The translations under genes and the position numbers were made by a program. From Actibacterium mucosum KCTC 23349 (GTDB taxonomy: Bacteria > Pseudomonadota > Alphaproteobacteria > Rhodobacterales > Rhodobacteraceae), in NCBI RefSeq assembly GCF_000647975.1, contig NZ_JFKE01000003.1:132206-196205 (forward strand): a stretch of DNA of 64,000 bases, read 5' to 3'. Shown piece after piece: positions 1 through 45,965 of this stretch. Below the pieces are notes generated by a model. The model did not search any database. It was not told the DNA's origin and was given only the letters and a program-made list of their open reading frames with translations. Every line of letters begins with the position of its first letter. Positions within the stretch are counted from its first letter, which is position 1.

Positions 1-516
1 CCATGTGGCGGGCGCTTGCGGGTCGGCCAGAAAATCTTCGGTGTGTTCGGCCCGAAACCATGTGACGTCACCGATCACGCCTTCGGCCACCAATTGCCGT
101 GCGAATTGCGAGGCAGGTGTGCGGATATAGTTATAACCGACCATATTCACATGACCCTGCGCGGCACGGACCATGGCCTTGGCGTCGGTCAGCGACGCCC
201 CCATCGGTTTTTCGCAAAAGACCGGTTTGCCAAGTGCAAATGCGGCCTCGGCGATCTCGCGGTGCAGCGCTTGCGGTGTTGCGATGATGATGGCCTCTAC
301 GGCCGGATCGGCCACAAGCATTCGCCAATCGTCGGTTGCCCGTGCGAATCCTAATGCTCGACGATGCGCGTCGGCCGATTTTGGACTGCTGGCGCAGATC
401 ATTTCAAGCCGGGGACGCAGGGAAGTGTTGAACACTGCACCCACGGCAGCCATGGCCACCGCATGCGCCTTGCCCATGTAGCCGCCCCCTACAATCCCGA
501 TGCCAATTTCCGCCAT
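1..516 (-). CDS. Gfo/Idh/MocA-family NAD-dependent oxidoreductase, probably inositol 2-dehydrogenase; the C-terminus runs off the window
   Basis: Reverse-complement translation from the ATG at 516 gives MAEIGIGIVGGGYMGKAHAVAMAAV..., with a GxGxxG Rossmann motif typical of Gfo/Idh/MocA N-termini. No stop is reached before the window edge. It is adjacent and divergent to iolC-iolB-iolJ. Confidence 0.6.
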   Translation of the reverse strand, partial: MAEIGIGIVGGGYMGKAHAVAMAAVGAVFNTSLRPRLEMICASSPKSADAHRRALGFARATDDWRMLVADPAVEAIIIATPQALHREIAEAAFALGKPVFCEKPMGASLTDAKAMVRAAQGHVNMVGYNYIRTPASQFARQLVAEGVIGDVTWFRAEHTEDFLADPQAPATW

Positions 517-616
517 GTCTCCTCCGCCAGAAAATTCTTGCAACCGGTTGCAAATTTTGTAGCCTAACCCTGATCAAGGCACAAGCTGCAATCATCTTTC
601 CACGTCGGAGGGGCCC

Positions 617-1594
617 TTGTCTCAGACAAAGATTGACCTTTGGGCTGCTATCAAACGCAACCGACACCTGGTCGTTGGCCGGGCGGGGATCGACTTGTTC
701 ACCGACCCCGGCGTGGCGTTGGAGGATGCACAGACGGTGAACCTTGGCCTTGGCGGTTCGGCGGCAAACATCGCTGCGGGCATTTGCAAGCTGGGCGGTA
801 AGGCGTCGCTTTTGACCTGTGTTTCTGATGACGGCATTGGCAGTTATTGCCTGGACCAACTGGTCGGTTATGGTGTGGGTGCCGAATATGTGCGTGCCGT
901 TGCCGGAGAGAACCGAAATTCGCTGGCATTGTATGAAAGCCGGGTCGAGGGGCACCGCAGCGTCATCTACCGCAACGGCGCCGCTGACTTTCAAATGGAT
1001 CAATCGGATGTTCAGCGCGTGGACTTCGACCGGTTCAGCGGGCTTATCACCGCTGGCACGGTTTTCGCCGCCGAACCCTCACGCAGCGCCGCGTTCCACG
1101 CGATGGAGCGTGCGCATCAGGCGGGGCTGCCGGTCATCTTCGACATCGACTATCGCCCCTATTCCTGGCCATCAGCCGAAATGGCCAGCCGCGTCCTGAG
1201 CCGTGCGGCCGAGCAAAGTGATGTGATCGTCGGCAATGACGAAGAATTTGCGTTTCTCGGCGACGGGTTGTCATCAGCCCGAGGCTTAGCGCGAAACGAG
1301 CGTTTGGTCGTCTACAAGATGGGCCCCAAAGGCGCGGTGACCTTCTGGCAGGGTGAAGAGATACGCACCGGAATCTACGCCGTTGAAGCGATGAAACCCA
1401 CCGGCGCCGGAGACAGCTTTCTGGCGGGCCTTCTGACGTCAATTGCCGATGGCCACGCGTTGAAGTCGGCGATCCTGCGCGGGTCAGCCTGCGCTTCAAT
1501 CACCGTGTCCCGGCCGGGATGTGCACCTGCCATGCCGACCCCGCAGGAACTGGCCGCGTTTCTGTCCACCCACCCCGGCCCCCAGACAGGTTAG
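617..1594 (+). CDS. iolC: 5-dehydro-2-deoxygluconokinase (PfkB-family sugar kinase)
   Basis: 325 aa from a TTG start, with GGAG 7 nt upstream. The PfkB signature GAGDSFLAGLL lies near the C-terminus and the length matches IolC. It is followed by iolB and iolJ. Confidence 0.7.
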   Translation: MSQTKIDLWAAIKRNRHLVVGRAGIDLFTDPGVALEDAQTVNLGLGGSAANIAAGICKLGGKASLLTCVSDDGIGSYCLDQLVGYGVGAEYVRAVAGENRNSLALYESRVEGHRSVIYRNGAADFQMDQSDVQRVDFDRFSGLITAGTVFAAEPSRSAAFHAMERAHQAGLPVIFDIDYRPYSWPSAEMASRVLSRAAEQSDVIVGNDEEFAFLGDGLSSARGLARNERLVVYKMGPKGAVTFWQGEEIRTGIYAVEAMKPTGAGDSFLAGLLTSIADGHALKSAILRGSACASITVSRPGCAPAMPTPQELAAFLSTHPGPQTG

Positions 1595-1603
1595 GAGCTT
1601 GTG

Positions 1604-2443
1604 ATGCATATCCCCCCCTTCAATAACCAGAACCGGCCGATCGTGGGCGTCGATGACCCCACGGTACCCTTGAACTATTTCAACATTCTCCACCTGGAAC
1701 CCGGGCAAACATTTACATACCGCGTGCCGGGCTATGAAACCTGTGTCGTGCCTGCCACCGGCAGTGTAGATCTAGAAGTTGAAGGGTTTGCCGCAAGCGA
1801 TCTGGGTGGCCGGGGCATCGATGTCTGGGATGGCGAGCCCGAAGGGGCCTATGTACCATCCGGTGCCGAGACAACGATCATCGCGCGCGACAAGGCGGAA
1901 ATCTTTGTGGCTGGCGCGCGCTATGACAAGGTTCTGGACCCCTTCACCGTCCGCGCAAACGAGCTGGACCTGGTTCAATATGGTTCTGACGACACAAAAA
2001 CCCACCGGAAAATCAAGCATATACTGGGGCAAAAGCAACATGGCAAAGTCGGGCGGCTGCTGGTGTCCGAACTTTATACGGTAGGCGCCGGTGGATGGTC
2101 AGGCTTTCCCAGCCACAAGCATGACACCGACCGCCTGCCTGACGAAACACGGCATGACGAGACCTATAACTTTCGCTTTCGGCCCAAACACGGCTCGGGC
2201 TTGCAAATGCTGCAACGCGAGGACGGCCAGCCGGGCGATGCCTATCACGTGGTGGACGGTTCGACGATTTGCCTTGATCGCGGGTACCATCCCTGTGCAG
2301 TTTTGCCGGGATACGAGATGTATTATTTCACCATTTTGGGTGGATTGTCACAACGCAGCCTCGTGCAGCATTTTCAACCCAGTCATGCGGACCAAATCGA
2401 AACCATACCGGGCATCAAAGACATGATCGCCAAGTTCAAATGA
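1604..2443 (+). CDS. iolB: 5-deoxy-glucuronate isomerase
   Basis: ~279 aa, the size of IolB, placed between iolC and a class II aldolase. AGGAG lies 6 nt upstream of the ATG, and the gene sits 10 bp downstream of the iolC stop codon. Confidence 0.55.
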   Translation: MHIPPFNNQNRPIVGVDDPTVPLNYFNILHLEPGQTFTYRVPGYETCVVPATGSVDLEVEGFAASDLGGRGIDVWDGEPEGAYVPSGAETTIIARDKAEIFVAGARYDKVLDPFTVRANELDLVQYGSDDTKTHRKIKHILGQKQHGKVGRLLVSELYTVGAGGWSGFPSHKHDTDRLPDETRHDETYNFRFRPKHGSGLQMLQREDGQPGDAYHVVDGSTICLDRGYHPCAVLPGYEMYYFTILGGLSQRSLVQHFQPSHADQIETIPGIKDMIAKFK

Positions 2444-3273
2444 CGCGCGCCACGCTGGCCGACGTTCTGCAACCTGCCCTGCGGGGCGGCTATGCCGTTG
2501 CAGGTTTGGTTTGCCTTGGATGGGAAGACGCGCGCGCCTATGTCGTCGCGGCCGAGGAGGAAAATTGTCCCGTCATCCTGCTGATCGGACCGGGATGTCG
2601 AGCCCATACGCCGTTGCACGTGCTTGGGGCCATGTACGGCCATCTTGCGGAACGATCGCAAGTTCCCGTTGTAACCCTACTTGATCACGGCGCCTCGGCC
2701 GAAGAATGCCGCGCCGCGCTCGAGGCCGGGTTTACATCGGTGATGTATGACGGCTCGGCCCTGCCTTTCGCTGAAAACGCTGCCCGGACCGCGGCGATTG
2801 CCGAAATGGCCCATGATCTGGGCGCGTCGTGCGAAGGGGAGATCGGGTTTGTCGGCTACGCTGAAGGCGCCGCCTCGACGGGAACGGATCCCGACGAAGC
2901 CGCCGAGTTTGCAGCACGGACTGGTGTGGACGCATTGGCGGTTTCCGTTGGCAACACGCATTTGTCCCCGGATCAATCGCGCCCCGTAAATACCGAAAAA
3001 CTTGCGCAAATCGCCGAACAAACGGATGTACCGCTGGTGATCCATGGCGGCTCGGGTGTGCCAGCATATCAGCGACAGAACTTGGCCCGCCATACACCTG
3101 TCTGCAAGTTCAACATCGGCACCGAATTGCGGCAGGTCTTTGGGCAAGCCCTTAGGCAAAAACTGGCTGCAGACCCTGAGAATTTCGACCGGATTGACAT
3201 CCTGTCAGCCACTCATGACCCCTTGGTCAGTGCCGCCCGGAAGGTGATGCGCAATCTCGGGCCGGCGCGCTAA
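2440..3273 (+). CDS. iolJ: class II ketose-bisphosphate aldolase, IolJ-like (6-phospho-5-dehydro-2-deoxy-D-gluconate aldolase)
   Basis: 277 aa of the class II FBP-aldolase family (VIHGGSG, DGS motifs). The ATG overlaps the iolB stop codon as ATGA. The iol context is the basis for the IolJ call. Confidence 0.6.
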   Translation: MTRATLADVLQPALRGGYAVAGLVCLGWEDARAYVVAAEEENCPVILLIGPGCRAHTPLHVLGAMYGHLAERSQVPVVTLLDHGASAEECRAALEAGFTSVMYDGSALPFAENAARTAAIAEMAHDLGASCEGEIGFVGYAEGAASTGTDPDEAAEFAARTGVDALAVSVGNTHLSPDQSRPVNTEKLAQIAEQTDVPLVIHGGSGVPAYQRQNLARHTPVCKFNIGTELRQVFGQALRQKLAADPENFDRIDILSATHDPLVSAARKVMRNLGPAR

Positions 3274-3276
3274 AGT

Positions 3277-5310
3277 TCAGCGTAACTCGGCCTCGGTGTT
3301 ACCGCCATCCACTGTCACCACATGGCCTGTGGTCCGCTCCATCAGCGCCAGATTGACGAAGCCATCGGCGACGTGGCGCGCTTCAACTTCACGGCCCAAC
3401 AGGTTGCCACCCATATATGTTTCCTCGCTGACACCGCGCGCGGCAGCGCGTTCCTTGATGAAATCGTCGGTCAACAAGCCTGACCGGATACGGTCGGCAT
3501 TCATGCCGTTCACACGGATGCCAGAACCGGCCAGTTCCAACGTCAGTTGCCGCATAAGGAACAGGGTCGCCGCCTTTGGCGTGCCATATGCGCCCATGTT
3601 CTTACCCGGATTGATCGCCTGTTTGGAAATATTGAACAGAATTTGCCCCCCACGCCCCTGTGTCTGCATAAGTTTTGCAGCAGTCGTCGCAAAATTCTTG
3701 TGGGCAAAGAAGTTTAGCTCGAACGCCTTGCGGAACGCCGCATCATCAAGGTCCAGCATCGCACCGCCTGTGGCGGAACCAGCGTTCGACACCAAAATGT
3801 CCAGCCCGCCAAAGGCAGCAATCGCGGCTTGCACCGCGGCCTCGGCGGCACCCGAAACTGTGATATCCGCAGCGTGGGTTGCATGCCACTTCCCAAGGCT
3901 TTCCAGCGATTTATCAAGTGCACCTTGGTCCATATCAACCAGCAGGATATTAGCACCTTTCGCCGCAAAAGCCTTGGCCGTCGCCAATCCGATGGCCCCG
4001 GCCCCGCCGGTCACCATCACGACCTTCCCCTGAAATGGCGGTGGCGTTCCTTTGCCCATCTTGGCCTGTTCCAGCGACCAGTACTCGCAATCAAACTGGT
4101 CTTTTTCGTTCAACGGGTAAAACCCGCCGGCGTCCTCGCCAACGGCACGCACGCGGATATTCTGCTCTGCCAAGTCCGCCGCGGCCGAGGCCGCCTTGGC
4201 ATTGCCGCCCATGCCGACAAGACCAATCCCTTCGATCCATGCGTGTTTGGGATCAGGCGTCAGCAGCTTTTTGGGCTCGTTGGCATTTGGCGCCTGGCGG
4301 TCAAAATAGGCGCGATAGTCGTTTGCAAATGCCTCGACCTTGGCCTTGATCGCGTCGCGGCTGACCAAATCTGCCTTGCGCAGGATCAGCGGCTGACCCT
4401 TGGTGCGCAGAACATGATCGGGCGAGGCCATACCACGCTTTGCAAGGGCCTCGATATCGTCGCGCAGCATGAACTCATGTGTCGCCGGCCCGTTGCGCAG
4501 ATCAAAAACCGGCATCGCTCCGTCGCGGTCTGCCGTCACCTCGGCGATCACACCGCGCAGAACAGGCAAGGCGTCCAATCCGGCTGCTGGCACGCGTTCA
4601 CCGATGGGTGTAAGACTGTTCAGCCCGAAATAGGCCGCAACCTCGTTGGAATGGCGCACAATCGTGTCATAACTTTCCTTGGCAGTGCCGCCAAAGGCAA
4701 AATGGCCGTGCTGGATCAGCAAAAGCCCTTCGACATCGGGGTTTTGCTCGTAAACCTCCGCGGCCTTTTTGGCCAGCCCGAAACCCGGCATGATATAGGG
4801 CACAATGCCCAGCCGGTCACCAAAGATTTCGCGACAGATATCCGCGGCATTTGGCAGGTTTGCCAAGACCAGGAAGGGCGTGGCATGAGTGTGATCAACG
4901 TATTTATGCGGCAGGAATGCGTGCAGCAAGGTTTCCACTGACGGGTTTGGCGACGCCGAGTTCAGCAGGCTTGAGCGCTGATAGTTCACCATGTCCTCGT
5001 CCGACATTGCATCCAGCGCCCGCAGTTTCAACAACGGGTCGAGCCACACACCCGGCAATCCCGGTGCCTCGATCACGTCCAGGTCCCAGCCTGACCCTTT
5101 AACATGCAACACCCGCTGCATATTGCCGAAGATATCAGGCCGTTCCAATTTGACCGAGGTATTGCCACCGCCATGCATCAAAAGGTCGGGGTTCTGGCCA
5201 ATCAGGCGCGAGGTATAGACACGCTCTCCCAGTTCCTGATCTGCTGGATCATCGCCTGCATTGCTGCGCCATTCTGCGGCTTTGGCGGCGTCGTACCAAT
5301 TCTCAATCAT
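3277..5310 (-). CDS. bifunctional class II aldolase/adducin-domain + short-chain dehydrogenase/reductase protein (rhamnulose-1-P aldolase/SDR family)
   Basis: 677 aa. The N-terminus carries the LMHGGGNTSVK aldolase motif. The C-terminal ~250 aa is an SDR, with Rossmann VMVTGGAGAIGLATAKAF and catalytic YGTPK. It is the last gene of the mtnK-mtnA-sorC operon. Confidence 0.75.
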   Translation of the reverse strand: MIENWYDAAKAAEWRSNAGDDPADQELGERVYTSRLIGQNPDLLMHGGGNTSVKLERPDIFGNMQRVLHVKGSGWDLDVIEAPGLPGVWLDPLLKLRALDAMSDEDMVNYQRSSLLNSASPNPSVETLLHAFLPHKYVDHTHATPFLVLANLPNAADICREIFGDRLGIVPYIMPGFGLAKKAAEVYEQNPDVEGLLLIQHGHFAFGGTAKESYDTIVRHSNEVAAYFGLNSLTPIGERVPAAGLDALPVLRGVIAEVTADRDGAMPVFDLRNGPATHEFMLRDDIEALAKRGMASPDHVLRTKGQPLILRKADLVSRDAIKAKVEAFANDYRAYFDRQAPNANEPKKLLTPDPKHAWIEGIGLVGMGGNAKAASAAADLAEQNIRVRAVGEDAGGFYPLNEKDQFDCEYWSLEQAKMGKGTPPPFQGKVVMVTGGAGAIGLATAKAFAAKGANILLVDMDQGALDKSLESLGKWHATHAADITVSGAAEAAVQAAIAAFGGLDILVSNAGSATGGAMLDLDDAAFRKAFELNFFAHKNFATTAAKLMQTQGRGGQILFNISKQAINPGKNMGAYGTPKAATLFLMRQLTLELAGSGIRVNGMNADRIRSGLLTDDFIKERAAARGVSEETYMGGNLLGREVEARHVADGFVNLALMERTTGHVVTVDGGNTEAELR

Positions 5311-5358
5311 CGTCCAAGTCCTTGCTGTTCCGGCACTTTTGGCCGTGCATCATATTGT

Positions 5359-6306
5359 TCAGGCCCGCGCCATCAGGTCGCGCGCGGTAGAAACGTCGGT
5401 GACAAAATGGCTGACATAGCCCCCCAGGATCGCCGCGCGGGCTGGCGCGGCCCGGTCAATCCCCGAGGCGACAAGCAACCCGGTTTCCTTGTTCTGCATC
5501 TCGGGCAGGGTGACGCCGATCATGCGTTCATCCACCTCGGCCGGGATCGGCGCACCATCGGCGTCGATGAACCGGCCGCAGATCACAGCCGCTGCACCTT
5601 TCCTGCGAAACGCGCGCAATTCATCCTGGGTTACAACACCCGAGGCGACAACGTGGCTGTCTTCGGAACAACTCCCGGCGGCGAAAATGGTCTTATTGCA
5701 ATGGCGCACGGCTTGCAGCTGCTGGGCAATCACCGGTTCCCGAGACAATTGATAAGCCAAGTCAGCGGTCGACAACACAAGCGGTGCGTGCAGGTTCACG
5801 CATTCGGCCTGAAACGCGCGCGCGAGGTTGGCCGAACAGGTCTCTGCGGCAAAGCCCAACGGCGTGACCTGCGAGCCAACCAGTTGCACCACCGTCAACC
5901 CTTCGATGGGTGCGCGGCTGGCGACTTCGGCCACCTCATAGACGGTTTGCCCCCACGACACGCCTAGCCGGTCGCCCGAGCTCAACAGCTTTGGCAGCCA
6001 ATCCGCAGCAGCCTTTGCCACGCGCCGCAGCGAGCTGTCGGGGGTTGGTCCATCTGGCACCACCAAAGCTTGTTCAAGGTTAAACGCATCGGCCAATTCA
6101 CGGCCCAGTTGATGCTCCATGAACACGTCAGGATGCATGGTGACGCGCACATATCCGCGCGCGCGCGCCTCGGCCAGATAGTTCACAACCGACGCCCGGC
6201 TAACCTTTAGCATCGCCGCGATCTCGGACTGCTTCATGCCATCCTGATAATAGGCCCAGGCGGCCTGTGTGATCAGTTCCAGGTTGGCGGCATCCGTCTG
6301 CGGCAT
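5359..6306 (-). CDS. SorC/DeoR-family sugar-binding transcriptional regulator
   Basis: 315 aa. The N-terminal HTH (SEIAAMLKVSRASVVNYL) is followed by a SorC-type sugar-phosphate-binding domain. The gene overlaps the mtnA stop codon. Confidence 0.7.
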   Translation of the reverse strand: MPQTDAANLELITQAAWAYYQDGMKQSEIAAMLKVSRASVVNYLAEARARGYVRVTMHPDVFMEHQLGRELADAFNLEQALVVPDGPTPDSSLRRVAKAAADWLPKLLSSGDRLGVSWGQTVYEVAEVASRAPIEGLTVVQLVGSQVTPLGFAAETCSANLARAFQAECVNLHAPLVLSTADLAYQLSREPVIAQQLQAVRHCNKTIFAAGSCSEDSHVVASGVVTQDELRAFRRKGAAAVICGRFIDADGAPIPAEVDERMIGVTLPEMQNKETGLLVASGIDRAAPARAAILGGYVSHFVTDVSTARDLMARA

Positions 6307-6309
6307 TTG

Positions 6310-7401
6310 TCAGCCAGCCTTATCGGGAAAAAGCGCGGCCAGCCCTTCGAAACTGGCCTCGCAAATGCCGCGCTCGGTGATCAGCCCGGTGACCAGCCGG
6401 TTTGGTGTCACGTCAAAGGCCGGGTTACCCGTTCCTGCCCCTTCGGGCGTTACGCGTACATCGCCGATGCCAGCGTCGGTCATACCAAGTACATGCGAAA
6501 TCTCGCGGGAAGGACGTTCCTCGATCGGGATCTCGGCCACGCCGTCGTTGATAGACCAGTCAATCGTCGGCGATGGCAAGGCCACATAGAAGGGCACCTT
6601 GTTGTCCCGCGCGGCCAAAGCTTTCAGGTAGGTGCCAATCTTGTTGCACACATCGCCGCGCGCAGTGGTTCGGTCTGTGCCGGTGATCACCAGGTCAACC
6701 ATCCCGTGCTGCATCAAATGGCCGCCCGCATTGTCGACAATGTATTGGTGACTGATCCCAGCTTCGCCCAGTTCCCATGCGGTCAGCGCGCCCTGGTTTC
6801 GCGGACGCGTTTCATCGACCCAAACGTGGATCGGAATGCCAGCGTCCTGCGCGTGATACATCGGGCTGGTGGCGGTGCCCCAATCCACCGTAGCCAACCA
6901 ACCCGCATTGCAATGTGTCAGCAAGTGCACCGGCTCGCCCTCTGGTTTGCTGGCGGCAATCTCGCGGATCAGGGCAAGGCCGTTTTCGCCAATGCGACGG
7001 TTGATCTCGACGTCTTCCTCAACCACCTCTTCCGCAAGCACCCATGCCGCCGCCGCCCGGCTTTCGATCGCCAAAGGCGACAGCGCTGACTTGCACCGGT
7101 CCAGCGCCCACTTCAGGTTCACAGCCGTAGGCCGGGTGGCGTTCAGCACCTCGCAGGTTTCGGCCAGGTTTGCATCTGACGGGTCTCGCGTCACCGCCGA
7201 AGCGACGCCATATGCTGCTGTTGCCCCGATAAGCGGCGCACCCCGCACCCACATATCACGTATCGCCACCGCGAACTCGTCGAGGGTGTTCAGCGTAACG
7301 ACCTTAAACTCGTGCGGCAGCCAGCGCTGATCGATAATCCGCACTTCGCCACTGTCGCCATCGCGCCAGATCGACCGGTAATGCGTGCCACCTACTTTCA
7401 T
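6310..7401 (-). CDS. mtnA: S-methyl-5-thioribose-1-phosphate isomerase (MtnA/eIF2B-related family; could equally be a 5-deoxyribose-1-P isomerase)
   Basis: 363 aa with the eIF2B/MtnA signature [21 protein letters not shown]. Its start overlaps the mtnK stop codon as ATGA. Confidence 0.8.
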
Positions 7402-8660
7402 AGGAAATCCTCCCCGTTGAACTGCCTTGCGATGTCTGACAGCCTCCGGACATCTGCCACCATGTCACGGCGCAAGATCAGATCGCGCCCCATCATAAGG
7501 TTGCGCGCCTCAAGCGGGGCGCGAATGGCAACGTCATCGATGGCCTCAAAATCAGCGTTGTGGGCCAGCGACAGGATACGGCGGTGCATCTCGATCCCGC
7601 AAAAGCCCAGCGCATCCGACCAAATCTCGTCCAACAGCGCATCGCGTGCGTTATCGGAACTATGCCCCTGATCTTCGAATTGTGAGCGGTCATAAAGCAT
7701 ACCGGTCCGCTCGGCCGCCCAGAGGGCTTTGAACTCGGCCATGAATGTATCCACGGTCTCGATAATTACCTGCAGAATCCACTCCTGATACGCGTTCAAG
7801 CTGTCGGCGGACCTATGGGCGGGTTGACTGAAATAGGCCATCAGGTAGTTGGCGACCAACATCCCCAAATCGAAGCCCATGGGACCGTAGAACACAAACT
7901 CTGGATCGATCACGCGGGTTTGGGTGTCTGTGCACATGGCCGAACCGGAATGCAGATCACCGTGGCACATGGTTTCCGCCTTGGCCGAAAACGTGCGGAA
8001 CAGATGCTGCACCTGTTCCTTCATCGCAACGTCGCTGCGCAAATGTGCGACCACGGGGTCCAACCCCTTGGTGTGGTGGTTCATCTCGGCGGCAAAGTAT
8101 GGATCGCGAAAAATCAGAGCCTCGGTAATCGCAGGTATTTCGACGCTGCCTGAAAACAGCGCAAGATCGGCCTTCTTTTCCGCGGATTTCATGCAAAGTT
8201 CCGATCCGCGAAACGCCGTTCGCGCGCAAAACTCACCCAACCTCTGGCCCAAACCGGCGACCTGTTCTCCGGCAATCAGCTTGGTGCGCAGAATCACATG
8301 CGGGCTGAGATACTCCATCACGATCAGGGCCTGCACCTCGTCAAAATGGTAGATCTCGGGCACGGATCCGGGATCGCGTGTGGCCTGCCGTGTCAGGGCG
8401 TGAAACTCGTAGAACGCGCGATAAAGCGGCAATGGCCAGCTGTCGCCAACCAACCGCACATAGGGCAGCGCTTGCTTTACAATTACGGCGCCATCCGGGC
8501 CGGTTACGATAAAAACAAGGTTCAGATTACCGTCGCCAACCTCGGTCACCGACCAGCCTGCCGGATCGCCGCCAACGCGGTCTGTCACAGCGGAAACCTG
8601 ACCCAATCTTGGGATCAGATTTTCGACGGTCAGGGCCTCGTATTCCGCGTCTTCGCTCAT
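7398..8660 (-). CDS. mtnK: 5-methylthioribose kinase-family protein
   Basis: 420 aa with the aminoglycoside-phosphotransferase-like motif HGDLHSGS and MtnK-like length. It is the first gene of a four-gene minus-strand operon. Confidence 0.8.
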
Positions 8661-8711
8661 GCCGCTCCCCGTTGGTTGGAATGGTGGTCTTTCACTGTCT
8701 TCGCGACTCGA

Positions 8712-8744
8712 TTGTCATTTGTCAAGGATGTTGACAAATGACAC
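8712..8744. promoter_or_regulatory. near-perfect inverted repeat TTGTCATTTGTCAA-GGATG-TTGACAAATGACA in the divergent mtnK / ABC-transporter intergenic region; candidate operator
   Basis: Read directly from the sequence. The 13-14 bp arms match 13 of 14 positions, separated by a 5 bp spacer. The repeat lies between the divergent start codons at 8660 and 8779. Confidence 0.4.
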
Positions 8745-8778
8745 CGGTCCGCCAATCATGCCGCCAGGGAGGCATGTT

Positions 8779-10287
8779 GTGAACACCATCGTTTGCAAAG
8801 TATCGGGGTTGGAAAAAGCGTTTGGGCCCAACAGGGTTCTGCGCAATATCGACCTTGAATTGCCTAGTGGGCAGGTCACCGTGTTGATGGGGGCCAATGG
8901 TGCCGGCAAATCGACGCTGGTGAAGGTTCTGTGCGGCGTGCACGAACCGGATACCGGCCAGATAACTCTTTTTGATCAACCCTTTACTCCACATTCCCCG
9001 CGCGACGCCTTCGCAAAAGGGGTGGTCACGGTGCACCAGTCGATCAATGACGGCGTCGCGCCCGATCTGGACGTGGCCTCGAACCTTATGATCGACCGCC
9101 TGACAGAATCGCGAGGCTTTTTCCTGTCAGACCGGGCCCTGCGTCGCGAGGCGCGCAAAATCGCCGAAGCGATGCAGTTGGGGTTGGATGTACGCGCGCC
9201 GGTCTCGTCGCTGGGCGTGGCTGACCGGCAAATGATCGCGATTGCACGTGCAATGGTGCGCGAACCCAAAGTTCTGATCCTGGACGAGCCGACCTCTTCC
9301 TTGTCCGCGGCCGAATCCGAGCGATTGTTTACCCTGATTGACCGTCTGCGCGCGACCGGGGTGGCGATCCTCTATATCTCGCATCGCCGATCCGACATTC
9401 AGCGGATCGCCGACCGCATTGTATCGATGCGCGACGGGCGAATTGCCGGGGTTTTCGAGGAAACGCCGCTGGATTACGAAGGCGCGGTGACTGCCATGCT
9501 GGGCCACGCCATGACAGATGTGCCCGTGCGCCCGACTGCACCTGGCGCGCCGGTGTTGCACATCGAGAATCTGTCGATGCAACCTGGCGGACCTGCAATA
9601 AACCTGACAGCCCACAAGAACGAGGTGATTGCTGTCACCGGCCTGCTTGGCAGTGGGAAATCGCGCCTTGCTTCGATCTTGTTTGGATTGGAAAAACCGG
9701 CAATTGGTCGTCTGACGCTGAACGGTGCGCCCTACGCGCCGGCCAATCCAGCCGAAGCCATCCGCGCCGGCGTGCATTTCAGCCCAAAAGACCGCGCGTC
9801 GAACGGAGTTGTTCCCGAGTTTGACATCACCAACAACCTGACCCTGCCCTTCCTCAAGAATTTCTCACGTTTGTCGATGCTGGGCCGGGGCGGCCAGCGC
9901 GCGGCAACCCGATCAATGATCGAAACGCTGGGCGTGGTTTGTCAGGGCGAAACCGATGGAATCGGCACGTTGTCAGGCGGCAACCAGCAAAAAGTGATGG
10001 TGGGGCGGTGGCTGAGCCAACCTTGCGCGCTGTTGGTGCTGGACGAGCCATTTCAGGGCGTAGACATCAAGGCGCGCCGCGACATCGGCGAGCACATTCG
10101 GCAAACAGCGGGTCAGCGCGCCACGATTGTCTTTGTCGCCGAGATCGACGAGGCGCTGGAAATTGCAGACCGCATTGTTGTGCTGAACGAACAGGCCCTG
10201 GTGGGTGAACACAAAAATGAAAACATCGAATTGGCGACGCTGATGGCCCAGATTTCCGGGCGGTCCGAGGCCATTCTGGGGGCATAA
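8779..10287 (+). CDS. sugar ABC transporter ATP-binding protein with duplicated ABC domains (CUT2 family, RbsA/MglA-like)
   Basis: The GTG start has GGGAGG 6 nt upstream; an alternative ATG lies at 8758. Two Walker A motifs are present (GANGAGKST and GLLGSGKS), along with two LSGG signatures. Confidence 0.8.
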   Translation: MNTIVCKVSGLEKAFGPNRVLRNIDLELPSGQVTVLMGANGAGKSTLVKVLCGVHEPDTGQITLFDQPFTPHSPRDAFAKGVVTVHQSINDGVAPDLDVASNLMIDRLTESRGFFLSDRALRREARKIAEAMQLGLDVRAPVSSLGVADRQMIAIARAMVREPKVLILDEPTSSLSAAESERLFTLIDRLRATGVAILYISHRRSDIQRIADRIVSMRDGRIAGVFEETPLDYEGAVTAMLGHAMTDVPVRPTAPGAPVLHIENLSMQPGGPAINLTAHKNEVIAVTGLLGSGKSRLASILFGLEKPAIGRLTLNGAPYAPANPAEAIRAGVHFSPKDRASNGVVPEFDITNNLTLPFLKNFSRLSMLGRGGQRAATRSMIETLGVVCQGETDGIGTLSGGNQQKVMVGRWLSQPCALLVLDEPFQGVDIKARRDIGEHIRQTAGQRATIVFVAEIDEALEIADRIVVLNEQALVGEHKNENIELATLMAQISGRSEAILGA

Positions 10288-10288
10288 C

Positions 10289-11305
10289 GTGCAGAAGAAC
10301 TCCAACCTGATCCACTTTGCCATCCGATACGGCTTTTTGCTGTTGCTGGCGGGGCTGGTCCTCTATTTCTCGATCTTTGCGCCTGGCTTTGCCGGGCCAC
10401 GCTCGGCGGTCTTCGTGTTCCAGTCGGTGGCGATCACCGGCATTCTGGCCTTGGGGGTAACCTGCACGCTGGTGGTGGACGGGTTCGACCTGTCCATCGG
10501 CTCGGTTGCCACGTCGGCCTTAATGATGTCGGCCTATTTCATGGTGATCCTCGAACAGCCCGCTTGGGTGGCGGTGCTGGCTTGCTTGGCGATGGGCGCC
10601 TTCGTTGGGCTGGTCAACGGGCTGTTGATCGTGAAAATGCGCGTGCCGGACCTTCTGGCGACGCTGGGAATGATGTTCCTGCTGATCGGCCTGCAGCGCA
10701 TCCCGACCGAGGGGCGCTCCATCTCCACGGGCATGGCGTTGCCCGGCGGAGGCAATGCCGAGGGGACGTTCTCCGCCGCCTTCCTGTGGCTGGGTCGTCA
10801 CCGGTTTGACTTTTTCCTCGAAAAACTGATCCCGGTTCCGGTGATCATCTTCGTGCTGCTTGGCGTGCTGATCTGGATCTTTCTCCACCTCACCCGGCAT
10901 GGGCGCCTGATGTATGCCATCGGATCGAACGAAAGAGCGTCCGAGTTGGCCGGGGCAAATGTACAGGGCTACAAAATTGCCGCCTACATGATCTCGGGCG
11001 TAACGGCGTCGATCGGGGGCATATTACTGGCTGCACGTCTTGGACGTGGCGATGTGGCATCCGGCAACAACCTGCTGCTGGACAGCGTCGCCGCCGCGCT
11101 AATCGGGTTCGCAGTATTGGGGGCAGCCAAACCAAACGCTTTTGGCACCGCCGTCGGGGCGATCTTTGTGGGCATCCTGTTGCAAGGTCTGACGATGATG
11201 AACGCCCCCTACTACACACAGGATTTCGTCAAAGGCGCCGTGCTTGTCGTAGCGCTTGTATTCACTTTCGCGCTGTCAGGGAGGAAGCGCGGCTCAGGGC
11301 ACTAG
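10289..11305 (+). CDS. sugar ABC transporter permease (RbsC/branched-chain-type, CUT2)
   Basis: 338 aa and strongly hydrophobic, consistent with a multi-pass membrane protein. It follows the ATPase gene by 1 bp. Confidence 0.8.
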   Translation: MQKNSNLIHFAIRYGFLLLLAGLVLYFSIFAPGFAGPRSAVFVFQSVAITGILALGVTCTLVVDGFDLSIGSVATSALMMSAYFMVILEQPAWVAVLACLAMGAFVGLVNGLLIVKMRVPDLLATLGMMFLLIGLQRIPTEGRSISTGMALPGGGNAEGTFSAAFLWLGRHRFDFFLEKLIPVPVIIFVLLGVLIWIFLHLTRHGRLMYAIGSNERASELAGANVQGYKIAAYMISGVTASIGGILLAARLGRGDVASGNNLLLDSVAAALIGFAVLGAAKPNAFGTAVGAIFVGILLQGLTMMNAPYYTQDFVKGAVLVVALVFTFALSGRKRGSGH

Positions 11306-11334
11306 CCCGCATTATCTTCATGGGAGGAAGAACA

Positions 11335-12381
11335 ATGAAACTACTAAGACGCAATGTACTGGGTCTGATCGGCGGCGCAGCCACCGCGCTTGGCGCAGGG
11401 GCTGCACTTTCGGCGGACATGCCCGCGCCGTTCGACAATGCCGGCGACGTGAAGATTGCGCTTGTGCGCTATCTTTCAACCGGAGACTTTTTCCAAGCCT
11501 ATCTGTCGGGCGTGGAGACGCAGGCGGCTGCGCTTGGCGTTGATCTGCGCGTGTTTGACAGCCGTCAGGACGCCGCGCTGCAATCGGACATGGTAGACCA
11601 GGCGATTGCCCTGGGCGTGGACGGCATCGTGATTCAGCACGGGCTGACCGAGTCGATGAAGGACGCGGCCCAGCGCGCCGTGGATGCGGGCATCAAGGTT
11701 GTGGCCTTTGACGTGAATGTCGAAAACGCCGCCATTCCGCAGATCGAACAGTCGGATTATCTGTTGGGCAAGCTGGCGCTGGAACAGGCGCTGGAGGATA
11801 ACGGCTCCACCTGGGAGGCCGGCTATGTCTATGTCCCCGGCATCGCGCCATTGGATCGCCGCCACGTTGCATGGGAAGAAGTGAAAGCCGCCAACCCCAA
11901 TATCGTAGAGAAAGTGGTGATCGGCACGCTGGACAACCCCATCGCGAACTCCAATGCCAACCAGGCACGCGCGGCGCTGCAGGCCAACCCGAACATCAAC
12001 GTGTTCTTTGCGCCCTATGACGAGTTCGCAAAGGGTGTGAAAATCGCGGTGGACGAGGCCGGCATGACCGATCAGGTATCCATCTATTCGGCTGACGTGT
12101 CGACCGCCGACATTGCCGCTATGCGCGAGCCGGGCTCGGCCTGGAAAGCCACCGTTGCCACGAACCCGGCCGTTGTGGGCGAGGTTTCGGTGCGCGCCTT
12201 GGCTATGCTTCTGGCCGGCGAAGACCCCGGTGACAGCGTCATTGTCCCACCGACCCTGATCACCCAGTCATTCCTGAATGACAAAGACATCAAAAACATG
12301 GGCGATCTGGCTGCCAACATGCCGCAATTTGCACACGCAGACGTAGCCACCCCCGATTGGATGCCGCTGCCAGCACGCTGA
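11335..12381 (+). CDS. periplasmic monosaccharide-binding protein of the CUT2 ABC transporter
   Basis: GGGAGGAAG lies 5 nt upstream of the ATG. The N-terminus is a signal peptide (MKLLRRNVLGLIGGAATALGAGAALSA), followed by a type I periplasmic-binding fold. Confidence 0.75.
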   Translation: MKLLRRNVLGLIGGAATALGAGAALSADMPAPFDNAGDVKIALVRYLSTGDFFQAYLSGVETQAAALGVDLRVFDSRQDAALQSDMVDQAIALGVDGIVIQHGLTESMKDAAQRAVDAGIKVVAFDVNVENAAIPQIEQSDYLLGKLALEQALEDNGSTWEAGYVYVPGIAPLDRRHVAWEEVKAANPNIVEKVVIGTLDNPIANSNANQARAALQANPNINVFFAPYDEFAKGVKIAVDEAGMTDQVSIYSADVSTADIAAMREPGSAWKATVATNPAVVGEVSVRALAMLLAGEDPGDSVIVPPTLITQSFLNDKDIKNMGDLAANMPQFAHADVATPDWMPLPAR

Positions 12382-12393
12382 TCAAACCAATAA

Positions 12394-12434
12394 GGGCAGC
12401 GGCCCCAACCGGGTCGCTGCCCTACTTTGCTTTC
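12394..12434 (+). terminator. rho-independent terminator after the ABC substrate-binding-protein gene
   Basis: Stem GGGCAGCG, loop, CGCTGCCC, then TACTTTGCTTT. Confidence 0.5.
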
Positions 12435-12636
12435 CGGACAAAGCTTTGCAGCTTGCCTTTAGACACCTCGATTTGCAGTGGCGAAGTTGCGCCCCCGGTT
12501 TATCGCACCAGGTGTCCACATGACGTTTTCCGACGCACAACAGATGCCCAAGCGCTCAGACGCTAAGACGGCAAGCAATTGGCCAAACGTGCGCGCTTTT
12601 GGCTCCTTTAGTCCACGCGCGCATTGGCTTATCTGC

Positions 12637-13107
12637 TTACCACGAATTGTACGCCAAGAATTTCCCTGACATTTCCAGCTTTACACGGTCACCTTTCTCA
12701 TGGGGGACCTTGGTGACGGACATGTCAAAGTCGATCGCAGACATGATCCCTGTGCCGAACTTTTCTTCGATCAGAGCCTTCAATGTAGGGCCATAGACGC
12801 CAACAATTTCGTAAAACCGGTAAATGCACGGGTCCGTTGGAACCGCCTGCTCCCACACTTTGGTGGGCGCTTCATTCAAAACGCTGGCTGCTTCCTGCGG
12901 AAGCCCCAACGCTGCAACCAAAAGCGCGGCCTTTTCCTCTGGGAATGCGTTCATACCCATAGAGGCGGAATGGGTAAAAACAGGTGACATATCGATCTTT
13001 TCTGCAATGTCTTCCCAGGTCAGACCCGCCGTTTTCTTGGCGGACAGGATCATCATTGTCACGTCTTCTTTGGTCATCATCGTTGGCACCTCAATTGCAT
13101 CTTTCAT
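12637..13107 (-). CDS. cynS: cyanate hydratase (cyanase)
   Basis: 156 aa, the same length as E. coli CynS. The conserved C-terminal block PTDPCIYRFYEIVGVYGPTLKALIEEKFGTGIMSAIDF is present. Confidence 0.9.
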   Translation of the reverse strand: MKDAIEVPTMMTKEDVTMMILSAKKTAGLTWEDIAEKIDMSPVFTHSASMGMNAFPEEKAALLVAALGLPQEAASVLNEAPTKVWEQAVPTDPCIYRFYEIVGVYGPTLKALIEEKFGTGIMSAIDFDMSVTKVPHEKGDRVKLEMSGKFLAYNSW

Positions 13108-13134
13108 GGGTTTTCCTCTTGGTGGATTTTTGCG

Positions 13135-13614
13135 TCATAGGCCAAGTTCGCTGAGCCCGGGGTGATCGTCCGGGCGTCTGCCCTGAGGCCAATGGAACAG
13201 GCGATCACTCTCTGCGATCGCCACGTCATTGATCGAGGCATGGCGCACCGCCATGTGGCCTGTCTGGGTGAACTCCCAGTTTTCGTTGCCATGGGCGCGG
13301 AACCACTGGCCCGTCTCGTCATGCCATTCATAGCAAAACCGAACGGCGATCCGGTGGCCCTCATGGGCCCAGATTTCCTTGATCAGGCGATAACCGTTCT
13401 CTTTGGCCCATTTGCGCTTCAGGAAGGCGCGCACGTCTTCTCGGCCGTTCAGGAACGCGTCCCTGTTGCGCCAGCGCGTTTCCGGCGAATAAGCCATCGC
13501 CACCTTATCTGGATCGCGCGTGTTCCAAGCGTCCTCGGCCATCCGCACCTTCTTGACTGCGTCTTCATGGGTGAAAGGCGGCAGTGGGGGGCGAAGTTGG
13601 GGCTGATCTGTCAT
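13135..13614 (-). CDS. DUF1348 / NTF2-like family protein
   Basis: 159 aa with the pattern [34 protein letters not shown]...[22 protein letters not shown]. It sits between the ABC ATPase gene and cynS. Confidence 0.55.
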
Positions 13615-13624
13615 TTCCAGCGCC

Positions 13625-14530
13625 TCACTCGTTCACAACCGCCTGCAGGGCCGGTGCAGGCTCCGGGTCTGTGTCGTCTTTTGTCTTGTCAATCACTACG
13701 CTTTGCGGCGACTGGTCATCTTGGTCGGACTTTTGTCCGGCAAGCTCCAGCGAGCGCTGACCAAGAAACTGTACGAGGTGGTTTCGGATCGCATAGTAAT
13801 TCGGATGCTCGACAATCTCGGTCCGATTGCGCGGACGCGGGATGGTGATCTCAACGGACTCGGCCACACGGGCAAAAGGGCCGTTTGTCATCAACAATAT
13901 CCGGTCGGCCAGAAGGATCGCCTCGTCGATGTCGTGGGTGATCATGAACACGGTCTGTTCGGTTTGGCTCCAAACCTTGATCAATTCATCCTGGATCGTG
14001 CCACGTGTCAGGGCGTCCAGCGCGCCAAACGGTTCATCCAGCAGCAGCAGTTTTGGCTGGTTGGCAAAAGCCCGCGCGATCGAAACCCGTTGGCGCATCC
14101 CCCCTGATAGTTGACTGGGTTTACGGTGCACAACATCGCCTTCAAGCCCCACCATTGCCAGGTATTGGCGTGCGTGATCCTCTACTTGCTTTTTCGACCA
14201 ATCCTTGTGCCGTGCAGCGACGCCAAATGTGACGTTCTTCAACGCCGACAGCCACGGCAGCAGCGAATAGTTCTGAAACACCACACCACGGTCCAGCGAC
14301 GGGCCAGACACGTGCATACCATCCATCTTGACAACGCCCGAGGTTGGCTCGGCCAGACCGGCCAAGATGTTCATGATTGTCGACTTGCCACAACCGGAAT
14401 GGCCCAGGATGCAGACAAATTCACCTTTCTCCACACCGAAAGTGCTGTTCTCGAACACGGTGAGCGTCCCACCCGCCCCGTCCGGAAACTGTTGGGTAAG
14501 GCGTTCAATCGAAAGAAACGGTTTAGCCAT
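13625..14530 (-). CDS. NitT/TauT-family ABC transporter ATP-binding protein (cyanate/nitrate/bicarbonate type, CynD/NrtD-like)
   Basis: Start MAKPFL, with AAGGAA 7 nt upstream. Walker A is GHSGCGKST; LSGGMRQRV and the Walker B LLLLDEP are present. Confidence 0.8.
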
Positions 14531-14540
14531 GTTGGTTTCC

Positions 14541-15542
14541 TTATTCCGAGTAAGCAACGGCGCGTTGCAGGCGGGCAAACGCCGCGTCCAGCAGCATGCC
14601 GACAACACCGATGAACAAGATCGCAACGATCATGCGATCGAGCCGCAGCCCGTTCCATTCGTTCCAGACGACGTAGCCGATACCCGTACCACCAACGAGC
14701 ATCTCGGCCGCGACGATCACAAGCCACGCAATGCCAATCGAAATACGCATGCCCGTTATGATGGTTGGTGCGGCAGCTGGCAGGATCACCGTCAAAGCTG
14801 TGCGCATTGAGCCCAGCTCGTGCGTGCGGGCAACGTTGACCCAATCAGAGCGCACGTTTGCAACGCCAAAGGCTGTATTGGTCAGCATCGGCCAGAGCGA
14901 GCAAATGAAGATCACGAACAGCGACGAAAGCTCGCTGTCTCCAATTGTGAAAAGGGCAATTGGCATCCAGGCCAGCGGCGAAATGGGCTTGAGAACCTGA
15001 ATGTAGGGGTCAAGGGCACGAAAAAACAAAGGCGACATGCCAATAAGAAAGCCCAGCGGGATCGCAACCGCGGCGGCTAGGGTATAGCCAATCACAACGC
15101 GCAATAGCGAATAGCCCATCTGGATTCCAAACCCCATGTCATTGGTTCCATTGACATAAAATGGGTCGGTGATGGTGGCCCAAAGCTCTTTGCCGATTAG
15201 CGCCGGCGAGGGGAAGAGCGAACCTGGCGCCGGGGCCGAGTTTTCGTCGGGCACACTGATTCCAAGCGCACGAATGCCTCCAGCAGCTTCAATCATGGCG
15301 CGGGACAGGCCAAGATTGGCGATTTGTTCAAGCTGAGCATAGGCCACGCCCTCGGCCGCATAAGTGTCGATATCTTCGCCGCTCATGTTGGCGGCCAACA
15401 GGGTGTCGCGCTGTTCTTGCGAAAGTTGAACGCCGATCGGTCCGGTATCGGGGACATGTGTTGCCGCATGCCAGATCAGAAGACCGACGACGAATATGGC
15501 AACCGAAAGCAAGGTGCTCCGTGCGTCAAGATTTGCGAACAT
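14541..15542 (-). CDS. NitT/TauT-family ABC transporter permease (CynB/NrtB-like)
   Basis: Start MFANLDAR..., with GGAG upstream. The protein is polytopic and shows the binding-protein-dependent transport signature region. Confidence 0.75.
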
Positions 15543-15612
15543 TCCGCTGCTCCAGATAAAAAATTGGGGGTCGGGGCACGCACGCACCCCGACCCTGTGG
15601 CTTCACTACGCC

Positions 15613-17040: not shown

Positions 17041-17261
17041 CGATTATCCCTGTTTTGGTTTTCAAAACGTTTGCGCGACGAACGACGGAGGGGGATCATT
17101 GCGTTGGGCAACGACTCGACTCTGTCGATTAAATCGCGTCTCAACCCATTTTGCTTTGGCCCTTGGGAAAAAAAAGGCGTTGCCAAAAATTTGTGCTGTC
17201 TAAAAATTTACAACAAAAACAATGCCTAACTCAGTGTTAGCGGAAGGGATGAAATACGATT

Positions 17262-17278
17262 TTTCGTAATTTACGAAA
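17262..17278. promoter_or_regulatory. palindrome TTTCGTAA-T-TTACGAAA in the AT-rich divergent region between the cyn operon and the EBP-like regulator gene
   Basis: Read directly from the sequence. The 8 bp arms are perfect. It lies about 40 bp upstream of the regulator ATG. Confidence 0.3.
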
Positions 17279-17318
17279 TTTCGTTGGCTCTGCGGCGGAA
17301 TGTGTTAACGCTGGAACC

Positions 17319-33870: not shown

Positions 33871-33891
33871 TCGCGGCCACCGCAACAACAA

Positions 33892-45883: not shown

Positions 45884-45965
45884 CTCACTCCCCTTGAATG
45901 CACGTTACGCGCGCAAAGGCCGGGCAATCAAGCCTGCGGGGCGCACAAGGGTGGGAGGAGCCGGA

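Follow-up and report, generated by a model that had tools for sequence, protein, structure and literature searches.

The DNA analysed here (the window) is a 64-kb stretch of contig NZ_JFKE01000003.1 from Actibacterium mucosum KCTC 23349; two of its proteins, the fusion and the binding protein described below, match database entries of this strain at 100% identity. Near its left end the minus strand carries, at 3277-8660, the genes mtnK and mtnA, a SorC regulator gene and a gene for a 677-aa protein in which a class II aldolase is fused to a short-chain dehydrogenase/reductase (SDR). The genes of a CUT2-type ATP-binding cassette (ABC) importer run divergently from the mtnK operon on the plus strand. 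As judged from sequence, the locus probably serves the substrate-inducible import and catabolism of 5-methylthioribose (MTR) and/or 5-deoxyribose by a variant of the dihydroxyacetone phosphate (DHAP) shunt. An earlier note on the same DNA had described four minus-strand genes and a divergent three-component importer, and all seven genes lie where it had placed them. Its account of the junctions holds for the ATGA overlap of mtnK and mtnA and for the 48 bp between sorC and the fusion gene; the second overlap that it reported is instead a 3-nt spacer, the mtnA/sorC junction reading TGAcaaATG. The spacing of the minus-strand genes is operon-like. The gene set and its order recur in about 65 of 80 loci that were retrieved with MtnK alone, and the arrangement is therefore far from chance. 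The features of the locus are as follows.

3277..5310, minus strand: fused class II aldolase (about residues 20-220, RhaE-like), linker and C-terminal classical SDR (about residues 425-675), from NF006192, Pfam and motifs
5359..6306, minus strand: SorC/DeoR(Bacillus)-type sugar-phosphate-responsive regulator, 3 nt after mtnA (PF04198, Sugar-bind, E 9e-55)
6310..7401, minus strand: mtnA, predicted (5-substituted) ribose-1-phosphate to ribulose-1-phosphate isomerase (TIGR00512), with the ATGA overlap with mtnK
7398..8660, minus strand: mtnK, predicted 5-methylthioribose/5-deoxyribose 1-kinase (TIGR01767, APH fold), first gene of the catabolic operon
8713..8743, no strand assigned: candidate SorC operator, a perfect inverted repeat of 13+13 bp between the two divergent operons, TGTCATTTGTCAA-ggatg-TTGACAAATGACA
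8731..8759, plus strand: sigma-70-like promoter of the transporter operon (TTGACA, 17 nt, AATCAT), 10 of 12 consensus positions, a consensus match only
8782..10287, plus strand: ABC transporter ATPase of CUT2 type, two fused nucleotide-binding domains (two ABC_tran domains)
10289..11305, plus strand: ABC permease, a single BPD_transp_2 subunit (PF02653, E 2e-38; RbsC-like model 160 bits, below cutoff)
11335..12381, plus strand: periplasmic solute-binding protein (SBP), predicted 5-methylthioribose and/or 5-deoxyribose ligand (PF13407, Peripla_BP_4)
12393..12423, plus strand: intrinsic-terminator-like hairpin closing the transporter operon (13-bp stem, 10 G-C pairs, T-rich tail)

Kinase, isomerase and fused aldolase

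The kinase scores 455 bits on the MtnK equivalog TIGR01767 (cutoff 275), has the APH fold by Pfam and shows the HGDLH and IDPEF motifs in its translation. Its best solved relatives are the MTR kinase of Arabidopsis (2PYW, E 1e-83) and MtnK of Bacillus subtilis (2OLC, E 1e-61). A look-up by identical sequence gave no entry for this MtnK. MtnA reaches 411 bits on the equivalog TIGR00512 (cutoff 279), and its best solved relatives are the MtnA structures 1T9K, 6A34 and 2YRF. On the IF-2B models (62 and 32 bits) and on the model of ribose-1,5-bisphosphate isomerase (148 bits) it stays below the cutoffs, and these two identities have been ruled out by the sub-cutoff scores. The earlier note had proposed a check of whether the pair might belong to rhamnose-type or eIF2B families; both proteins pass the MtnK and MtnA equivalog cutoffs and are neither FGGY/rhamnose-type nor eIF2B proper. 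The two entry activities of a DHAP shunt are thus represented, MtnK standing for the enzyme that makes the ribose-1-phosphate (MtnK/DrdK or MtnP) and MtnA for the MtnA/DrdI isomerase, encoded next to the kinase. In Candidatus Rhodobacter oscarellae (L082 5846-7869) mtnK is called as two open reading frames (ORFs) of 317 and 362 aa, which could be a frameshift or an assembly error.

The fusion protein scores 804 bits on NF006192 (bifunctional aldolase/SDR; cutoff 639) and carries the Pfam domains Aldolase_II, adh_short and adh_short_C2. It falls in the PRK08324 group, with an N-terminal class II aldolase and a C-terminal SDR in a chain of about 680 aa and the curated model passed. Among solved structures only an uncharacterised archaeal domain (3M4R) is closely related, and matches to RhaD of Escherichia coli are faint. 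Across 63 mtnA-linked homologues there is little or no variation in the aldolase motifs (the phosphate-binding GGGNTS and the metal ligands H-T-H and H-G) or in the SDR motifs (TGxxxxIG, an Asp following strand 2, NAG, S and YxxxK), and both domains look active. In classical SDRs an Asp after strand 2 accompanies a preference for NAD(H). The protein is predicted to be a 5-(methylthio/deoxy)ribulose-1-phosphate aldolase coupled to an NAD-dependent aldehyde oxidoreductase.

Homology of the fusion to the RhaD/RhaEW equivalog TIGR02632 extends over the full length (405 bits), and JGI labels several of its homologues 'rhamnose utilization protein RhaD', both of which speak for a locus of RhaD/RhaEW type acting on L-rhamnose or another 6-deoxyhexose. 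The score is, however, below the TIGR02632 cutoff of 567.75, NF006192 being passed instead, and no rhaA-, rhaB- or rhaU-type genes lie in or near the locus. It has no rhamnose isomerase, mutarotase or FGGY rhamnulokinase, its kinase and isomerase being of the MtnK and MtnA families, and the binding protein of the importer matches RhaS only at E 3.5e-9 (36 bits). The rhamnose/RhaEW reading has been rejected on the model cutoffs and gene content, and the chance that it is correct is negligible.

The RhaEW proteins of Chloroflexus and B. subtilis, the only relatives of the fusion that have been characterised, have been reported to cleave rhamnulose-1-phosphate and to oxidise the lactaldehyde to lactate with NAD+; reductase activity was not seen, and no DHAP was formed without NAD+ (PMC3870299). 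Because these relatives oxidise with NAD+ and have no reductase activity, we lean towards oxidation of the released aldehyde to the acid by the SDR domain. Reduction to the alcohol is a viable alternative, since seven sister loci carry an aldo-keto reductase. The earlier note had described an SDR domain fused to the aldolase where other systems have a separate aldehyde reductase: the SDR fusion is confirmed, while 'reductase' was an assumption, given that RhaEW oxidises.

Two aldolases in one operon slot

A scan with MtnK, using one genome per species, has yielded 80 loci, which were compared as 20-kb stretches. Most belong to marine Rhodobacterales (Marivita, Dinoroseobacter, Sedimentitalea, Sinisalibacter and others) or to Hyphomicrobiales (Roseibium/Labrenzia, Hoeflea and Pannonibacter). 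About 65 of the 80 have the SBP, permease and ATPase genes with a divergent mtnK-mtnA, mostly with a SorC gene. The closest full-cluster relative is that of Candidatus Rhodobacter oscarellae, with a fusion 89% identical to that of the window.

An aldolase fills the slot beside this backbone in 64 of the 80 loci. In 32 of them it is a FucA-like protein of about 220 aa of the Ald2/DrdA type, followed in seven cases by an aldo-keto reductase gene, and in the other 32 it is the aldolase::SDR fusion. The two never occur together within 8 kb (0/80). The neighbourhood survey that the earlier note had proposed thus finds the backbone with either aldolase and with both in no case. The stand-alone aldolase scores 179-192 bits on FucA models and 72 bits on the MtnB model; its best matches include FucA of E. 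coli, and it matches DrdA (6BTD) at E 3.5e-29. No FucA-like gene of the Ald2/DrdA type (about 215 aa) is present in the window's locus, and BLASTP finds no significant similarity between the aldolase domain of the fusion and the Ald2-like protein of the sister loci. On this sequence evidence the fusion and the Ald2-type enzyme are a case of non-orthologous displacement within one superfamily. Of the Ald2 loci, only the Marivita/Dinoroseobacter group has an oxidoreductase gene after the aldolase (the aldo-keto reductase); in five others that were inspected, the operon either ends with Ald2 or continues without an oxidoreductase gene.

The order in the window, mtnK-mtnA-sorC followed by the aldolase gene, is that of the Ald2-type loci, and in neighbour-joining trees without support values MtnK and MtnA of the window group with those loci. 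In the corresponding tree of the fusions, also neighbour-joining and without support values, the window's protein groups instead with those of the mtnA-fusion pairs of Ruegeria and Roseovarius. Taken together, this order and these groupings suggest that the fusion has replaced Ald2 in place at the window's locus.

Fusion genes have also been followed outside the MtnK loci. Bare mtnA-fusion pairs, with neither kinase nor transporter, occur in Ruegeria lacuscaerulensis, R. atlantica and Roseovarius aestuarii, in three different contexts. A metagenome scan anchored on the fusion has found mtnA directly upstream in many contigs: the pairs are present at 45-47% identity in soil contigs of 42-68% GC, including an arrangement mtnP...mtnA-fusion, and marine contigs of 28-31% GC still have them at 41-42% identity. 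In the set used for the tree, mtnA lies directly upstream in 63 of 117 fusion homologues, and in the clade with the window about 57 of about 65 members are mtnA-linked (the tree was read by eye and has no support values).

The low-GC marine contigs contain a tightly packed array with overlapping genes, in the order PfkB (iolC-like), IolB-like protein, aldolase of the fructose-bisphosphate aldolase (FBA) type, MtnP, MtnA and fusion. Its MtnP scores 280 bits on TIGR01694, the equivalog of methylthioadenosine (MTA) phosphorylase (cutoff 275). A variant in the same lineage (L166 1471-10010 and L165 550-5387) has MtnK (487 bits), a divergent nucleoside hydrolase of inosine-uridine type, a CUT1 ABC transporter (SBP_bac_1 and two BPD_transp_1) and the mtnA-fusion pair, and its gene content suggests import of the nucleosides themselves. 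As a separate observation, in the low-GC marine arrays a conserved 138-aa ORF comes after the fusion gene, and just beyond it, encoded on the opposite strand, are a pyridoxal phosphate (PLP) enzyme of Cys/Met metabolism (cystathionine beta-lyase-like) and a TauE-type exporter (L129 8225-8740, L167 10808-12639 and L168 10437-12328, all minus strand). A link of this neighbourhood to sulfur recovery from the methylthio product is possible.

Because the fusion excludes Ald2 and is linked to mtnA or mtnP, we infer a DHAP-releasing cleavage. Two readings within methionine salvage have to be weighed at this point. The universal pathway begins with MtnK and MtnA, and these might feed MtnB, MtnC and MtnD encoded elsewhere in the genome, with the fusion and the transporter as unrelated neighbours; the inspection covered 64 kb, and mtnB, mtnC and mtnD could lie beyond it. 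No mtnB, mtnC, mtnD, mtnP or mtnN gene has been found among the annotated ORFs of the window. This set comprises ORFs of at least 184 aa together with DUF1348 (159 aa) and cyanase (156 aa); ORFs of 122-198 aa at 13703-14107, 30190-30558, 33376-33891, 45894-46490 and 61226-61645, and an ORF at 62987-64000 that runs past the window end, are outside it. The operon-like spacing, the retention of the aldolase slot with two unrelated aldolases swapping in it, the mtnA-fusion pairs down to 41% identity and a sugar-type repressor, where metK has a SAM riboswitch, all argue against unrelated neighbours, and we regard this reading as very unlikely. The earlier note had set aside methionine regeneration for want of nearby mtnB, mtnC and mtnD; this stands for the annotated ORFs and is limited to the 64-kb window. 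Sulfur may be recovered via methanethiol.

In the second of these readings the aldolase domain would be an MtnB-like dehydratase and the SDR would act on the diketone, giving a new branch of methionine salvage. MtnB belongs to the class II aldolase/adducin superfamily, and Ald2 of E. coli was once annotated as MtnB (PMC6302742). However, no MtnB model is among the 25 NCBIfam matches listed for the fusion, aldolase activity has been demonstrated for the RhaEW-type fusions to which it is related (PMC3870299), and the protein that it replaces is FucA-like by the scores given above. A dehydratase is accordingly given only a very slight chance.

Importer and control region

The ATPase scores under the cutoff on all of the AraG, YtfR, XylG and RbsA-like models. 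Its start is most likely the GTG at 8782, 7 nt after GGGAGG, and not the first ATG of the ORF at 8659. The start of the binding protein, ATG 11335, agrees with the 348-aa public model, and the terminator-like hairpin begins 12 nt past its stop codon. The predicted MTR transporter mtrACB of Bacillus cereus and gamma-proteobacteria, which adjoins mtn genes, has the order ATPase-permease-SBP, the same as here (PMC3228920).

By sequence, the closest solved protein to the binding protein is 4RY8 (E 1.8e-64, residues 31-349), entitled in the PDB 'Crystal structure of 5-methylthioribose transporter solute binding protein TLET_1677'. It is followed by a Yersinia SBP (5ULB, E 6e-37), and ribose-binding proteins reach E 1e-15 or weaker. 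An AlphaFold model built from 45 homologues (pLDDT 85.7), which replaced a single-sequence model (pLDDT 41), has given the same ranking by fold: the top PDB match is 4RY8 (E 2.6e-32, TM-score 0.79/0.86), then come 5ULB (7e-27) and the ribose, glucose and allose binders (about 1e-18). The gap between 4RY8 and the ribose-type proteins in the fold search is about 14 orders of magnitude. By both measures, no other solved sugar-binding protein is as close to it as this MTR-binding one, and the check for kinship with a binder of an unrelated sugar, which the earlier note had proposed, has led to the MTR-binding 4RY8. The transporter is predicted from these comparisons to take up 5-methylthioribose-like sugars.

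The binding protein is also the most conserved protein of the locus, with 76-90% identity across genera compared with 57-74% for MtnK, and several of its clusters at 90% identity run to hundreds of metagenome members (e.g., 489 and 627). Such conservation is unusual for a periplasmic binding protein.

The same chemistry could act on another substrate, for example a 5-halo, 5-amino or 5-carboxy-type 5-deoxy sugar, or ribose, which would give glycolaldehyde. The identity of only 38-42% between the binding protein and the MTR-binding 4RY8 leaves room for this, members of the fusion family also occur in mtnA-free sugar clusters, and the conservation of the binding protein across loci hints at a very specific ligand. 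On the other side, MtnK and MtnA are well over their equivalog cutoffs, and DrdK has been shown to accept only 5-deoxyribose and MTR, and not ribose, 2-deoxyribose or fucose (PMC6079011). The fusion is linked elsewhere to mtnP, which ties the module to MTA and 5'-deoxyadenosine, and ribose-binding proteins are far more distant than 4RY8. Another substrate is therefore considered unlikely, though less so than the readings within methionine salvage.

The regulator resembles the B. subtilis DeoR and LsrR models, and its gene is kept beside mtnA in most of the related loci. The divergent control region is 121 bp long, and the two TTGACA halves of its palindrome face the two operons. The core TGTCAA-N5/6-TTGAC has a single occurrence in the window. 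Of the 80 loci, 68 have it no more than 250 bp upstream of mtnK, only three other matches occur in 1.5 Mb, and the loci without it are mostly those that lack transporter and regulator. The promoter of the transporter operon is the best-scoring site in 3100-12700, and its -35 box is the right half of the palindrome. As in other SorC/DeoR-type systems, SorC is predicted to repress both divergent operons through the palindrome and to be released by a phosphorylated intermediate.

Within the locus Rfam gives no match, riboswitches included. The window also contains metK, and at its 5' end there is a riboswitch for S-adenosylmethionine (SAM) or S-adenosylhomocysteine (SAH), RF01727 (47689-47737, minus strand; 54.4 bits, gathering score 40). 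Since metK has such an element and the locus has none, control that responds to sugar and not to methionine fits the locus. The riboswitch overlaps the called start of metK (46517-47710), and the true start of that gene probably lies further downstream.

Proposed pathway, neighbouring genes and known systems

MTA and 5'-deoxyadenosine arise inevitably in SAM-dependent reactions and are inhibitory. The substrates of the locus would be derived from SAM by these routes, 5-methylthioribose from MTA and 5-deoxyribose from 5'-deoxyadenosine. In the proposed pathway the binding protein would capture the sugar and the CUT2 ABC transporter would import it. MtnK would then phosphorylate C1 of the imported sugar, and MtnA would isomerise the aldose-1-phosphate to the ketose-1-phosphate. 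The N-terminal class II aldolase of the fusion would cleave the latter to DHAP and X-CH2-CHO (acetaldehyde or 2-methylthioacetaldehyde), and the C-terminal NAD-type SDR would convert the reactive aldehyde on the spot, to acetate or 2-methylthioacetate if it oxidises and to the alcohol if it reduces. SorC would block both operons at the palindrome, which overlaps the -35 region, until a phosphorylated pathway intermediate releases it. We infer every biochemical step, the effector, the function of the operator and the physiological role. An exogenous substrate is plausible because excretion of both sugars is known: Synechococcus elongatus excretes free 5-deoxyribose, and the same paper notes excretion of MTR by E. 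coli (PMC8102628). The earlier note had proposed a DHAP shunt with an importer for exogenous MTR or 5-deoxyribose, and this proposal is supported by the mutual exclusion of Ald2 and the fusion, by the mtnA linkage and by the kinship of the binding protein.

Several points weigh against this interpretation. L-rhamnulose-1-phosphate and 5-deoxy-D-ribulose-1-phosphate differ in C4 configuration, and the former is the only substrate that has been tested in the RhaE branch. Fusions 69-80% identical to that of the window, nested in the mtnA-linked clade, occur in mtnA-free clusters (L086, L087 at 39-11703, L088 and possibly L111). In L086-L088 three kinases, two of them FGGY and one PfkB, are encoded together with SorC, a CUT2 binding protein, a FucA/Ru1P-aldolase-like protein and a class III aminotransferase; in the mtnA-free L085 (1-10175) there is one kinase of each of these two families, accompanied by SorC, a class II aldolase, a 2-hydroxyacid dehydrogenase and a CUT2 transporter. 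A large soil group of fusions (46-50% identity) is mostly without mtnA as well. Membership of the fusion family does not by itself fix the substrate, and because of these mtnA-free clusters the assignment rests on genomic context. In addition, about 10 backbone loci have neither aldolase nearby, some of them on contigs that end early, and the trees are neighbour-joining trees that lack support values. The ligand of the binding protein could differ from that of 4RY8, given the identity of just 38-42%, and the scan for a promoter on the mtnK side gave a weak -10 box only and no convincing site.

To the left of the locus, at 617-3273 on the plus strand, lie genes for an iolC-like PfkB kinase, an IolB/KduI-like isomerase and an FBA-type, IolJ-like aldolase. 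A Gfo/Idh/MocA gene is leftmost and runs off the window start. The trio is convergent with the fusion gene, the stop codons being 3 nt apart, and its scores sit just under the iol equivalog cutoffs. The earlier note had taken the adjacency to iol genes as coincidental, which is now doubtful: in the distant low-GC marine lineage (28-31% GC) the trio is packed directly upstream of mtnP-mtnA-fusion (L129 424-3091, L167 3382-6055 and L168 3392-6052), iolG, iolD and iolE are not nearby in these arrays, and IolB is 69% identical between the window and that lineage. The adjacency may therefore not be coincidental. The trio was found in none of the other approximately 150 loci, and the operon argument is weaker because streamlined genomes are densely packed. 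5-Deoxyglucuronate, 5-deoxyribose and MTR all have the structure CHO-(CHOH)3-CH2-X, and it is conceivable that the two modules, each giving DHAP and X-CH2-CHO, share the aldehyde step.

To the right, 12637-19175 holds a cyanase gene (cynS), a DUF1348/SnoaL-like gene, a nitrate/cyanate-type ABC transporter (ATPase, permease and SsuA-like SBP) and a divergent sigma-54 activator, which is probably a cyanate utilisation unit unrelated to the salvage locus. Further along, ARAGORN calls tRNA-Arg (ACG) at 32953-33027 and tRNA-Leu (CAG) at 33021-33093, which overlap by 7 nt on the minus strand. Rfam gives only the tRNA-Leu (33021-33093) of the pair, and one of the calls may be spurious.

The locus bears on several wider questions. 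According to a 2026 review, the enzyme that acts on the 2-methylthioacetaldehyde of the DHAP shunt is still unidentified (PMC13474568). The SDR domain fused to a non-orthologous aldolase and the aldo-keto reductase clustered in sister loci are candidates for a dedicated aldehyde enzyme. In aerobic E. coli the carbon of the acetaldehyde leaves the cell as ethanol (PMC10986504); an aerobe whose fusion worked as an NAD+ dehydrogenase could retain it as acetate. Two forms swapping in one operon slot also offer a clean natural case of non-orthologous displacement, and the labels 'RhaD', 'ribose-binding protein' and 'LacI family regulator' would be corrected for thousands of proteins. The linkage of a strongly conserved importer, whose clusters at 90% identity have hundreds of metagenome members, suggests that in the sea free MTR or 5-deoxyribose does serve as a substrate.

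A broader and more doubtful proposal, which is offered tentatively, joins these points. The fusion, and not Ald2, would be the principal DHAP-shunt aldolase of marine Alphaproteobacteria, including abundant low-GC streamlined lineages, roseobacters and Roseibium/Hoeflea-type bacteria, and the SDR would be the long-sought aldehyde oxidiser, acting on acetaldehyde, 2-methylthioacetaldehyde and possibly malonic semialdehyde from the iolC-iolB-iolJ-like module. If this were true, all five carbons of 5-deoxyribose would be assimilated and MTA would yield a new organosulfur acid, 2-methylthioacetate. SAM-derived 5-deoxypentoses would then be an exchanged currency of carbon and sulfur in seawater, taken up by a conserved high-affinity importer.

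The DHAP shunt is established in Rhodospirillum rubrum, in pathogenic E. coli and in Bacillus thuringiensis, where it is encoded by DrdK/DrdI/DrdA (PMC10986504, PMC12632272, PMC6079011). In E. coli, where MtnR acts as its repressor, the shunt allows cells to grow on MTA, 5'-deoxyadenosine and 5-deoxyribose (PMC10986504, PMC12632272). Sugar transporter genes belong to some of the drd clusters, which their authors have read as salvage of exogenous 5-deoxyribose (PMC6079011). The window shares with R. rubrum (MtnP-MtnA-Ald2) and extraintestinal pathogenic E. coli (Pfs, MtnK-MtnA-Ald2-permease and MtnR) the use of MtnK or MtnA and the predicted cleavage of the ketose-1-phosphate to DHAP and an aldehyde. 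As in E. coli, a transporter and a repressor of sugar-phosphate type are encoded beside the pathway genes, and use of an exogenous 5-deoxypentose is predicted. Unlike in R. rubrum and E. coli, the aldolase is the RhaE-like domain of an SDR fusion and not an Ald2/FucA-like protein, and a candidate aldehyde-processing enzyme is built in. The importer is a three-component CUT2 ABC system where E. coli has a single permease, and the DeoR-family MtnR of E. coli contrasts with a SorC-type regulator and its candidate TGTCAA-N5-TTGACA operator. The kinase/isomerase/class II aldolase triad is also that of B. thuringiensis DrdK-DrdI-DrdA; sister loci have a DrdA/FucA-like aldolase, whereas the aldolase of the window is of the fused, RhaE-like type.

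With the RhaEW/RhaD proteins of Chloroflexus, B. subtilis (YuxG) and Rhizobium the fusion shares the two-domain architecture, the length and the full-length homology. It differs in belonging to the NF006192 subfamily, in its genomic partners, which are MtnA, MtnK or MtnP and not RhaA/RhaB, and in its predicted substrate, which by textbook carbohydrate stereochemistry is D-erythro and not L-threo. The importer resembles the MTR transporters mtrACB and Tlet_1677 in the kinship of its SBP to 4RY8, its gene order and its linkage to mtnK/mtnA; the published MTR transporters serve full methionine salvage under S-box or MetJ control, unlike the predicted DHAP shunt and SorC of the window (PMC3228920). 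MtnK, MtnA and the predicted substrate 5-methylthioribose are shared with universal methionine salvage, which rebuilds methionine, whereas here the aldolase predicted to act after MtnA would split the carbon skeleton. No description of the fused-aldolase variant has been found in open-access papers or bioRxiv. Overall, the pathway is known, and what is new is the RhaE-like fused aldolase-dehydrogenase in a DHAP-shunt role, together with an MTR-type importer and a SorC operator system.

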